The translations under genes were made by a program, and so were the position numbers. This document shows positions 55,527 through 61,773 of a stretch of 64,000 nt of DNA, one piece after another. The DNA is from Octopus vulgaris. Lineage: Eukaryota. The stretch is taken from positions 34,224,001 through 34,288,000 of the forward strand of contig OX597818.1 of the NCBI GenBank assembly GCA_951406725.2, given 5' to 3'. The notes beneath the pieces were generated by a model, which ran no database searches, was not told where the DNA came from, and was given only the letters and a program-made list of their open reading frames with translations. The first letter of the stretch is position 1. The number at the start of each line of letters is the position of its first letter.

Positions 55527-56052
55527 TTTTGCCGAACCGCTAAGTTACGGGGACGTAAAAACACCAGCATCAGTTGTCAAGTGATGTTGGGGCAACAAAC
55601 ACAGACACACACACATATATATACATATACATATATACGACGGGCTTCTTTCAGTTTCCGTCTACCAAATCCACTCACAAGGCTTTGGTCGGCCCGGGGC
55701 TATAGTGGAAGACACTTGCCCAAGGTGCCACGCAGTGGGACTGAACCTGGAACCATGTGGTTCGTAAGCAAACTACTTACCACACAGCCACTCCTGCGCC
55801 TATAAACTTAAACACAGGAAAAATACCTATTTCTTTACTACCCACAAGGGGCTAAATACAGAGAGGACAAACAAGGACAGACAAACGGATTAAGTCGATT
55901 ACATCGACCCCAGTGCGTAACTGGTACTTAATTAATCGACCCCGAAAGGATAAAAGGCAAAGTCGACCTCGGCGGAATTTGAACTCAGAAAGTAGCGACA
56001 GACGAAATACCGCTAAGCATTTCGTCCGGCGCGCTAACGTTTCTGCCAGCTC
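55527..56052 (-). mobile_element. SINE A (55527-55801) and SINE B (55823-56052)
   Basis: Homology to other copies. Confidence 0.85.
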
Positions 56053-56146
56053 ATATGCATCTTATAGCAGAAACAGCTGAAAATGAAGCCCATCACATAA
56101 TTTCCTATTCCCTTGTTTATATAATATCTTATGTATATATGTATGT

Positions 56147-57749: not shown

Positions 57750-58469
57750 GATAATTACTTAAAAGAAAAGCTTTCTGTTTTTTTCATATTAAGATCCAAA
57801 CATTGTTAGTCTGTTCTGTTCTGTTTTGTTGTGATCTTTCAATGTATTTGATCTGCCCAGCTGCTACCTTGTATTCTAATTTATATTTTCCATCATTACG
57901 GTTCTTCCAACATTTTATAAAATACCAGTTTGTTTTTGTTTTTTTTGGGAAATCTTCACCACATAACAACATACATCTATAGTCAGCTGATTGTGATTGA
58001 ACAGAGGAACAGAAACAAACAAACAAACAAACAAATATACAAACAAAAGGAACCTCGATGAAAGCAGAGCAGTAAAATTAGAGAAACAATAAAATACGAG
58101 TGTCTAAAGATGTAGGAAGCAATGGCTGGCAGAAACGTTTAGCACGCTGCGCGAAATGCGTAGCCGTATTTCGTCTGCCATTACGTTCCGGGTTCAAATT
58201 CCGCCGAGGTCAACTTTGCCTTTCATCCTTTCTGGGTCGATGAATTAAGTACCAGTTACGCACTGGGGTCGATGTAATCGACTTAATACATGTGTCTGTT
58301 CTTGTTTGTCCCCTCTATGTTTAGCCCCTTGTGGGTAATAAAGAAATAGGTAGTGGATTGGTAGACAGTGGTGTTTAGTTATCATATATTTTTTTACCTG
58401 TCTCAGCCATTCGATTGCGGTCATGCTGGGCCACCGCCTTCATGGGTTCTGTCGGACAAATCGGCCCCA

Positions 58470-58871
58470 TTATTTACATTATTTACATTCGACGGATATT
58501 TGTCCTCATCTTGTTTGTTGTTCACACAGCGTTTCGGCTGATATACCCTCCAGCCTTCTTCAGGTGTCTTGGGGGGAAATTTCGAACCTGGGTTCTCATT
58601 CCTAAGGTATTTTTCGATGTTATTATTATTATTATTATGCTAGGACACAACAACTTCCTAAGCAGACCGAGTGCAGATATGAGCAGCATATGGGAACCGG
58701 TATTGAGGAAGGATAGAAAAATATTAGATTTTTAAGCCCTAAAATTCACTCCATAATTACCTACGGCTAAGAGCGCGGGCTACTAACCCCAAGATTCCGA
58801 GTTCAATCCCACGCAGTGACTTGAACAACAACAACAACAACAACAACAACAATAACAACAACAACAACAAC

Positions 58872-58932
<61 letters not shown>

Positions 58933-59110
58933 TCGAAAAATAATTTGGAATGAGAACCCAGGTTCGAAATTTCCCCAAGACACCTGAAGAAGGCTGGAGT
59001 GTATCTCAGCCGAAACGTGTTAACAACAAACAAGATGAGGACAAATATCCCTCAAATGTAAATAATGTAAATAATGTACATATTTCCTCATCTCTTAAAT
59101 ATAGAACTGT
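58470..59110 (+). mobile_element. PLE module E inverted composite: ORF end, tRNA-like segment and HHR
   Basis: HNNFLSRPSADMSSIWEPVLRK...* (stop at 58735), tRNA-like 58761-58822, HHR 58979-59021, inverted copy 58470-58638; TSD aaatcg(g/a)cccca; lies inside a SINE A. Confidence 0.8.
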
Positions 59111-59415
59111 AAATCGACCCCAGTGCTTATTCTGTTGGTGACTTTTGCCAAACCGCTAAGTTACGGGCACGTGTACAAACTAGCACCAGGCCCAAAATAT
59201 GCATTCCATATCAATGCACAAACGCAAATATCTGTGGAGAGATTTGATGGAATCGTTTTACAGCCATACTTTGCTTCTTTTCTTATTCAATGGTATTACC
59301 TGCATAGAACTGTAAGAATTAGAATTGTATTACTATCAAAGACTCACTTCTATTACATAGCCCAAAAGAATATTGATCTTGTTTTATACTCCAAACTCAA
59401 CATTATTTATATATA

Positions 59416-60271
59416 TGAACTGGCAGAATCATTAGCATGCCGGACGAAATGCCTAGCGGTATTTCGTCTGCCGCTACGTTCTGAGTTGAAATTCCGCAGA
59501 GGTCGACTTTGCCTTTCATCCTTTCGCGGCCGATTAAATAAGTACCTGTTACGCACTGGGGTCGATATAATAGGCTTAATCCGTTTGTCTGTCCTTGTTT
59601 GTCCTCTCTGTGTTTAGCCCCTTGTGGGGGTAGTAAAGAAATAGGTATTTCGTCTGTCTTTACATTCTGAGGCCAAATTCCGCCGAGATCGACTTTGCCT
59701 TTCATCTTTTCGGACTCAATAAATTAAGTACCAGTGAAACTCCGAGGTCGATGTAATCGACTAGTCCCCTACCCGAAAATTTCAGACCTTGTGTCTGTAA
59801 GTAGGAATAATTATTTAAATAAGGCGGTGAGTAAAATAGTGTTCTTAGTACATAAATAGATGTAATATATTTTCTTTGCTTTTCTACTCTAGGTACAAGG
59901 CCCGAAATTTGGGGGGAGGGGTCAGTCGATTAGATCGACCCAGTACGCAACTGGTACTTAATTTATGGAACCCGAAAGGATGAAAGGCAGAGTCGACTTC
60001 GGCGGAATTTGAACTCAGAACGTAAAGACAGACGAAATACCCATTTCTTTACAACCCACAAGGGGCAAAACACGGAGAGGATAAACAAGGACAGACAAAC
60101 GGATTAAGTCGACTATATCGACCCCAGTGCGTAACTGGTACTTAATTTATCGACCCCGAAAGGATGAAAGGCAAAGTCGACTTCGGCGGAATTTGAACTC
60201 AGAACGTTACGGCAGACGAAATACAGCTACGCATTTCGCCCGGCGTGCTAACGTTTCTGCCAGCTCGCCGC
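59416..60271. mobile_element. Two SINE B dimers, tail to tail (59416-59810 +, 59879-60271 -)
   Basis: Mutual reverse complements with a ~70-nt spacer. Confidence 0.9.
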
Positions 60272-60823: not shown

Positions 60824-61367
60824 CACTCCGTCAGTTACGACGACGACAAAGGGTTCCAGTTGATCTGATCATCGAAACAGCCTGCTCGGGGAATTAACGT
60901 GCAAGTGGCTGAGCCCTCCACAGATATGCGGCGAGCTGGCAGAATCGTTAGCACGCCGGGCGAAATGCTTAGTGGTATTTCGTCTGCGGTTACGTTCTGA
61001 GTTCAAATTCTGCCGTGGTCGACTTTGCCTTTCATCCTTTCGGGGTTGATTAAATAAGTTCCAGTTACGCACTGGGGTCGATATAATCGACTTAATCCGT
61101 TTGTCTGTCCTTGTTTGTCCCCTCTGTGTTTAGCCCCTTGTGGGTAGTAAAGAAATAGATATGCGTACCCATAACGTAGTTTTCAGGGAGATTCAGTGTG
61201 GCACAGACTGAGACATGGCTGGCCCTTTGAATTACAGGTCCTGCTTATTTTTGTCAGCTGAATAGACTGGAGGAAACGTGAAATAAAGTATCTTGCCACT
61301 GGGAATCGAACTCACGACCTTACGATCGTGACCCAAATACCCTAACCACTAAGCTAACGCGTCTTCA
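60824..61367 (-). mobile_element. SINE D-head/tail-2 copy interrupted by SINE B (+)
   Basis: TSD agatatgcg at 60922-60930 and 61157-61165. Confidence 0.85.
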
Positions 61368-61521
61368 TTGGGCCCTGTGTCTATTGAATAACAAATTATA
61401 CTACAATTTATCACCTACAAACGTGATGAATAGACTCAGTGTACAACTGTTCTGAATAAGGATATCCATTGCTACATAGTTCACGCTATTGAACTCCGGG
61501 GCGATTACAAACTTTACAAAT

Positions 61522-61688
61522 AAGGCGCAGGAGTGGCTGTGTGGTAAGTAGCATGCTTACCAACCACATGGTTCCGGGTTCATTCCCACTGCGTGGCACC
61601 TTGAGCAAGTGTCTTCTACTATAGCCTCGGGCTGACCAAAGCCTTATGAGTGGATTTGGTAGACTGAAATTGAAAGAAGCCCGTCGTA

Positions 61689-61773
<85 letters not shown>

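Follow-up and report, generated by a model that had tools for sequence, protein, structure and literature searches.

The 64,000-nucleotide stretch of Octopus vulgaris DNA analysed here (the window) contains a well-supported new variant of Penelope-like element (PLE), in which a promoter-like, tRNA-derived head is the 5′ limit of short and long copies alike. Because this head stands at the 5′ end of most copies and the ancestral sense strand lacks any run of four T residues (T4), transcription of the element by RNA polymerase III (Pol III) from the head is likely, with a probability that we put at roughly 0.6; an autonomous element transcribed by Pol III is the interpretation that we infer to fit the sequences best. 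For a retrotransposon that encodes protein this would, if true, be unusual, and it would account for the thousands of short SINE-like copies. Even a weaker reading would trace those thousands of copies to a promoter within a PLE.

A two-armed insertion in the window

The host genome is large (2.8 Gb) and microsatellite-rich. Positions 58458-59122 of the window are an insertion of a Penelope/Poseidon-type element with two arms, flanked by target-site duplications (TSDs). Its parts, and two further members of the family in the window, are as follows.

58458..58469, + strand: left TSD, 12 bp with one mismatch, within an older host repeat
58468..58638, - strand: inverted arm, with microsatellite end, ATG, hammerhead (GCU at the cleavage triplet) and short tail
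58636..58735, + strand: end of the 5′-truncated PLE ORF, with the final GIY-YIG endonuclease codons and the stop
58736..58758, + strand: short (23 nt) 3′ UTR
58759..58824, + strand: tRNA-Arg-derived head
58825..58930, + strand: (AAC/AAT)n leader from head to start codon, very variable in length among copies
58950..59110, + strand: ORF start, about 55 codons (ATG 58950), up to the long-tail end GAACTGT
58979..59022, + strand: minimal type I hammerhead (predicted) within the ORF start
59111..59122, + strand: right TSD
33530..33852, - strand: second family member, short, its A and B boxes intact and its fold-back junction lying at the 5′ hairpin (about 33776-33793)
33133..33228, + strand: third family member, a tail-only fragment

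Every part of the module listed in a preliminary description of this region was recovered at its position. The TSD, described as 12 bp with one mismatch, reads AAATCGGCCCCA at 58458 and AAATCGACCCCA at 59111; elsewhere, TSDs of at least 9 nt flank 20 of 37 two-armed insertions, compared to 4% of shuffled pairings. The direct arm (58636-59110) has the order ORF end, 23-nt UTR, head, (AAC/AAT)n, hammerhead and tail, and the inverted truncated copy said to precede it corresponds to 58468-58638, which is 92% identical to 58912-59076 over the shared part. The ORF end, thought to resemble a PLE GIY-YIG C-terminus, lies in a frame ending HNNFLSRPSADMSSIWEPVLRKDRKILDF (stop codon 58733-58735), and this ending indeed matches the C-terminus of an intact relative, P0006, at 12 of 24 residues (pairwise E 1e-6). 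Two parts of the description need amendment. The tRNA-like segment is present (58759-58824) and retains a B box, GAGTTCAATCC at 58799-58809, but its A box has gone through a 16-nt deletion in the head; the putative RNA-start position, 58759, is A in this copy and G-6 in most others. Likewise, the hammerhead and the (aaataatgt) tail are both there, but they are coding: the ATG at 58950 opens MRTQVRNFPKTPEEGW..., the N-terminus of the element ORF, so that hammerhead and tail form its first ~55 codons. Both hammerheads of the window copy are damaged, the direct arm having a 3-nt deletion at the cleavage site. The earlier statement that no copy has an intact hammerhead therefore holds for the window arms, but not for the family, as 10 of 107 arms examined outside the window are intact.

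An endonuclease-bearing PLE with a hammerhead in its ORF start

Extension of the module in the 5′ direction, as the preliminary description had proposed, recovered an ORF for reverse transcriptase (RT) and GIY-YIG: genomic copies run 5′ through GIY-YIG into RT (GSPLS, YVDD), and the upstream ORF is PLE-like. Majority columns of 21 long copies give an 835-codon frame with the motifs GSPLS, YVDD and CVYSIPC..YKGET, a match to RVT_1 (E 1e-6), and 57% identity to intact P0006, aligned over full length; the closest relatives, P0001-P0011, are 55-76% identical. The Pfam GIY-YIG profile found no match in this frame, and the endonuclease call comes from motifs and alignment. The alignment has the CCHH features CxC, R..EH, H, E and N, and the CxxC linker is absent; for Penelope/Poseidon, CCHH with two cysteines inside GIY-YIG, conserved R/H/E/N and no zinc-finger linker have been described (PMC8557442, in part). 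The element is accordingly classed as an EN+ PLE of Penelope/Poseidon, a clade assignment made by features and not by a tree. Its 2.85-kb unit has the order head, (AAY)n, ATG, hammerhead, tail, rest of the 835-codon RT/GIY-YIG frame, stop, 23-nt UTR and head again, and the family shows a pseudo-LTR, an inverted 5′ partner and a tail of 30-40 nt. A splice donor in the AAATAATGT repeat was considered and dropped, because the frame runs unbroken through that repeat.

The predicted ribozyme in the ORF start consists of helix I GACAC, core CTGAAGA, a bulged A, helix II GGCTG/CAGCC and GAAA-CG. It has the features of a minimal type I hammerhead, with core CUGANGA and GAAA-UH, helices I and II, and a palindromic remnant of helix III. 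Its helices fold as drawn, with z of only -0.8 to -2.0, and N7 is polymorphic (T/A); Rfam did not recognise the hammerhead in the family. Distant relatives keep the core and differ in helix sequences, and the amino acids that the ribozyme core specifies (TPD/E..PKRCV) are found again in P0006. Tails end at one of two places: long, at +160-164, in 29 of 70 arms, or short, at +109-139, in 39 (three insertions were sampled from both arms in this count), and 35 of 41 arm pairs combine one long and one short tail. Separately, four of 17 arm ends in the hammerhead region (L223, L237, L239 and L242) lie no more than 2 nt from the predicted cleavage site; as a GTTAAC palindrome occupies that site, cleavage and microhomology would leave the same ends there.

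At 5-6% non-CpG divergence the family is old, and none of its copies was found to have a complete open frame; the viral contigs searched yielded no relative. Exact 23-24-mer matches are most frequent for the tail (8,224), followed by the head (1,657), the UTR (702), the endonuclease (680) and the tail-to-ORF junction (66), and reversed control motifs for head and tail gave none. The tail motif is kept exactly in 30 of 90 arms, which, with its 8,224 matches, suggests roughly 25,000 arms in the genome. The head motif is exact in 2 of 63, and the copy estimate from it is several-fold above the others, so we limit the claim to the order of 10^4 copies. The (AAT)n leader is often broken by other repeats, including LINE-like coding fragments (L065, L067, L084, L093, L097, L107 and L148), and appears to be an insertion target.

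The tRNA-derived head is a fixed part of the element

Among 30 ORF-anchored loci read by eye, the head follows the ORF in 26; three of the others are cut before it and one has a larger deletion that also took the ATG, and no clean head-less allele occurs among the 30. The head is a fixed part of the element, and not an independent SINE absent from most copies. Of 30 tRNA loci compared, which did not span every isotype, the tRNA-Arg(TCG) of this genome matches the head best, with 49 of 72 positions identical (z about 9 versus shuffles). Neither ARAGORN nor Rfam called the head a tRNA, its T-stem is unpaired, and its cloverleaf is not recognised by tRNA models. The A box TGGCGTAGTGG and B box GAGTTCGATTCC have nonetheless been kept; they lie 44 nt apart, the spacing in tRNA, and are intact in typical copies, and in three natural copies the A/B-box score was reached by 0 to 2 of 300 shuffles. 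The 5′ hairpin of the predicted RNA is GCCC-ac-GGGC.

5′ ends of copies pile up at the head

The 5′ ends were collected from two directions. The head-anchored sample comprised 70 of the first 71 head matches on C1, for which the script alone placed 48 of 70 ends between +17 and -12. Nine ends that it had placed at -13 to -22 were reassigned by eye to the head, because the alignment had run into the inverted arm or the flank. After this hand correction, 57 of 70 ends lie at +17 to -8 and 13 copies continue upstream, compared to 4.9 ends expected at the head if truncation occurred there as often as in the ORF (25 ends in 8,894 nt); a pile-up at the tRNA start had been proposed as a check. The tail-anchored sample took the first 30 tail matches and 40 later ones, leaving aside matches in loci already sampled and most partner arms. 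Here 33 of 70 arms reach the head, of which 26 stop within it, three in the UTR and four in the ORF, and 20 of the 70 ends cluster in the microsatellite. Finally, in 65 of the 66 tail-to-ORF junction loci, the direct repeat upstream extends as far as the head in 10 cases and goes beyond it in none.

The start of the RNA is, we infer, G-6 or a base close to it. Five jump junctions (L406, L407, L415, L426 and L446, with L406 and L407 sharing one breakpoint) start at G-6 after untemplated A-rich bases, without the palindrome. By our reading, the ends of about a dozen copies that have no inversion likewise fall at -8 to +12; a few ends, at -8, lie beyond the proposed start. Many junctions read atatGCCC-ac-GGGCatat on either strand, as expected from a cDNA that ends at G-6 and folds back on the hairpin. 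Pol III typically starts at a purine 10-20 nt before the A box, and G-6, as read from DNA copies, lies 13 nt before it, where the RNA start of a type 2 Pol III unit would fall. Processing by RNase P was rejected as the source of these ends because the clean jump junctions start at -6, not +1.

Short copies share variants with ORF-linked copies

Approximately 80% of head-bearing arms are without ORF. These short copies have several marks of SINEs, being short and numerous with a tRNA head and Pol III boxes; a master lineage of their own is what they lack. Specifically, 57 short and 71 ORF-linked arms carry the same polymorphisms at like frequencies, with strong differences only in the search motif and weak ones at a few CpG and other sites (p 0.006-0.03, uncorrected), and non-CpG divergence is 5.4% for short and 5.8% for ORF-linked arms. 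Because the two kinds share variants, the short copies do not form a SINE lineage of their own; they look as if the same master RNA had produced them. The simplest reading would be a single master RNA with RT start sites ~300 nt from its 5′ end. The preliminary description had proposed a PLE whose internal Pol III promoter could spawn PLE-mobilised SINE-like RNAs, and this proposal is supported: the upstream ORF belongs to a PLE, and the head to the element. The evidence goes beyond the spawning of SINEs, in that it points to the head as the start of the full-length RNA.

Most copies are dispersed head-to-head pairs, and a few are short tandems (L405, L406 and L415). The short tandem units seen at L405, L406, L407, L409, L415 and L446 contain head or hammerhead, tail and 36-230 nt more of the ORF, and arose by template jumps; the breaks in L406, L407, L419 and L452 lie near one shared ORF position. 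Such units may be secondary masters or precursors of retrozymes. Among the 65 junction loci, full units were never seen as a head-to-tail dimer.

The unit lacks runs of four T

A type 2 Pol III unit should have no internal oligo-T terminator, and none is found in the 2,849 majority columns of the unit, UTR included (P 0.005-0.03). The expected number of T4 runs is 5.0 by base shuffle (P 0.005), 2.9 by codon permutation (P 0.026), and 4.4 if Phe codons followed the other two-fold pairs (P 0.006). Natural copies contain 18 runs in 37 kb where 80 are expected, or 29 in 55 kb versus 118 in a second count on partly the same loci, and nearly all of these runs are private. In the controls, 22 other PLE units have 184 runs versus 147 expected (none has zero and the lowest has one), a second PLE family of the same genome has 14 versus 8.2, and four of its LINE families have 25 versus 16.6. 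On the other hand, G4 is also absent from the unit (1.0 expected), and seven of 86 control ORF stretches have no T4, including that of L319 (4.3 expected), which has no A/B box and carries seven T4 runs in its UTR. The absence of T4 is, moreover, read from one ancestral (majority) sequence. The signal is suggestive, not decisive.

A similar arrangement in a distant relative

L306 is a tandem PLE from a metagenome contig, with a period of 2,791 nt and an open 855-codon frame, whose RT is 39% identical to that of the element. Its corresponding feature (L306:2821-3030) has an A box TAGTTCAATCGG and a B box GGTTCAACTC, 158 and 102 nt upstream of the hammerhead, followed by an A-rich leader and the hammerhead at the ORF start. 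A full-score A/B pair arose in 0 of 300 shuffles and in 1 of 100 in another test, and L306 alone, among 18 hammerhead-bearing relatives scanned, has such a pair in the UTR. In addition, it has the longest T4-free stretch of 23 units (2,672 nt), with two T4 runs less than 400 nt from the head. Rfam and ARAGORN recognised neither head nor hammerhead in L306. An A/B-box candidate in L374 (p 0.02) was discounted, as it lies inside the ORF.

Proposed mechanism and alternatives

In the proposed mechanism, Pol III would start at the G six nt before tRNA +1 and, meeting no oligo-T terminator, could read the whole unit. The PLE protein would nick both target strands, and reverse transcription would start inside the ORF at about +120-139 and +160-164, as for PAc in vitro (PMC11167929, in part). 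About 80% of the cDNAs that reach the head would run off there, and SINE-sized copies would be common because the RT start sites lie only ~300 nt from the 5′ end of the RNA. Copies would be finished by fold-back on the GCCC-ac-GGGC hairpin, by joining a second cDNA, or by a jump to another RNA, and an ORF-bearing copy would arise when initiation falls in the second repeat of a read-through RNA. More tentatively, the Pol III RNA could serve as both full-length template and mRNA. A tRNA promoter, once captured, would then drive end-to-end transcription of an autonomous element whose 2.85-kb unit had been purged of terminators and whose uncapped RNA was translated via the A-rich leader. L306 would be another such case, only distantly related, and would mark a group of Penelope elements that are driven by Pol III and make SINE-like copies from their own RNA. 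Pol III RNA is uncapped, and the (AAC/AAU)n leader recalls A-rich viral translation enhancers.

These data can also be read as the work of two polymerases, with Pol III making only the short RNA as a SINE-like source, Pol II making the mRNA and the ORF-bearing template from an internal promoter or by host read-through, and the lack of T4 due to chance. Such a division accounts for the pile-up at the head and removes the problem of translation, and a T4-free ORF does exist without a head, in L319. A Pol II start at the same base would give identical 5′ ends, and the internal promoter mapped in D. virilis Penelope is LINE-like (PMC2377424, in part). Moreover, Kojima holds that the autonomous partners of TRIMs with Pol III promoters must use Pol II (PMC10886601, in part). 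We nevertheless consider this division unlikely: the 5′-repeat copies joined to the ORF N-terminus also stop at the head, the whole unit is T4-free down to its UTR, unlike the 22 control units, and freedom from T4 in the ORF would be of no benefit to a short Pol III RNA.

It is less probable still that the head is a passenger, left by an old insertion of a tRNA or SINE that became fixed in the master, with the pile-up caused by a coinciding Pol II start or by the GCCC-ac-GGGC palindrome as a hotspot of joining or resection. The A-tailed jump junctions start at G-6 without the palindrome, the copies without inversion also end at -8 to +12, and ends left by RT stalling would lie on the 3′ side of the hairpin, whereas many lie on its 5′ side; in addition, the start precedes an intact A box at 13 nt, and the boxes persist in a head whose T-stem is unpaired. 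What speaks for a passenger is that many junctions are fold-backs at the hairpin, and that the ends in the microsatellite indicate that microhomology does shape ends. Least credible is an independent tRNA SINE, possibly one of the octopus SINEs of 1994, with a borrowed PLE tail and its own master genes. The predominance of head-bearing arms without ORF would fit this reading, and the short tandems with head, hammerhead and ORF start (L406, L407, L409 and L415) could be its secondary masters. However, short and ORF-linked arms have no diagnostic site between them outside the search motif and the CpG and weak sites, they match in divergence and in polymorphism frequencies, and the 11 of 70 heads without a tail have no common alternative body. 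Transcription of the element by Pol III remains the preferred reading.

Relation to known systems

Schistosoma SM-alpha has a tRNA head and a hammerhead, and the octopus tRNA SINEs OK, OR1 and OR2 were reportedly described in 1994 by Ohshima and Okada; the short form of the element may be one of the latter. Like these tRNA SINEs, the short copies have a tRNA head, a short body, a 3′ part in common with the mobiliser, and copies of the order of 10^4. They differ in that the head lies within an autonomous element and the short copies have no separate lineage.

PAc of Anolis resembles the element in having one ORF with RT then GIY-YIG, a hammerhead that overlaps the ORF start, two tail ends within the ORF and separated by about 30 nt, and an inverted truncated partner arm; its reverse transcription starts at two sites inside the ORF, and its ribozyme is dispensable in vitro (PMC11167929, in part). 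Penelope/Poseidon PLEs share the minimal hammerhead with a bulged base before helix II (PMC4209133, in part), and both the hallmarks of PLEs and their minimal hammerheads have been described before (PMC4209133 and PMC8557442, in part). The element's own features are the tRNA-derived A/B-box head, the (AAY)n leader in the terminal repeat, the 5′ ends at the head and the lack of T4; no such head is mentioned for PLEs there (PMC11167929 and PMC4209133, in part). The TRIMp3 elements Cassandra, Helenus and Ajax likewise carry a small-RNA-derived Pol III promoter in the terminal repeat, with boxes kept and tRNA function lost, but they are non-autonomous LTR elements of at most 1.3 kb, whereas the element is a protein-coding PLE of 2.85 kb (PMC10886601, in part). 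Animal non-LTR retrozymes, similar to the short copies, are short, bear hammerheads and derive from PLE terminal repeats; they are tandem arrays by definition, whereas copies of this family are mostly dispersed head-to-head pairs (bioRxiv 10.64898/2026.07.22.740005 and PMC7761336, in part).

In the literature searched, no PLE with a tRNA head was found; Repbase, Dfam, the 1994 octopus SINE paper, preprint supplements and the consensuses of PMC8557442 lie outside that scope and may contain the family. The terms 'tRNA', 'Pol III' and 'polymerase III' have no occurrence in the retrozyme preprint (bioRxiv 10.64898/2026.07.22.740005), nor has 'Penelope' in the SINE papers PMC5786205 and PMC4494074, and two cephalopod repeat papers give PLE and SINE families with no such link between them (PMC13282606 and PMC8967140, in part). 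Autonomous retrotransposons are usually assigned to Pol II and short non-coding passengers to Pol III, a division argued from the weak processivity of Pol III (PMC10886601, in part). If real, an autonomous element that combines a tRNA promoter with a terminator-free unit would break this division, and it would fill a gap between PLEs, SINEs and retrozymes. The inverted 5′ repeat of these copies would also be explained, by fold-back on the 5′ hairpin of the RNA itself, and two questions would become testable, namely the translation of a Pol III RNA and the purpose of a hammerhead in an ORF start.

Other repeats

A second, young PLE family in the same genome (L522:1733-4760, L523 and L525) has copies 98-99% identical to one another, an open frame of about 1,000 codons, a zinc-finger linker as in Neptune, and oligo-T after the stop, and may be active; our hammerhead pattern found no match in it. 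Sixteen PLE-bearing contigs in bacterial genome bins (L381-L396) are most likely eukaryotic contamination. One LINE family (L462-L491), with many open 949-codon frames, is the main source of RT matches in the genome, at 24 of 30 loci. In the window itself, another tRNA-like SINE family is dense (55823-56056, 58139-58352, 59413-59628, 60037-60271 and 60928-61162), its copies being 88-92% alike, and at least two further SINE families lie at about 61520-61740 and 61280-61370.
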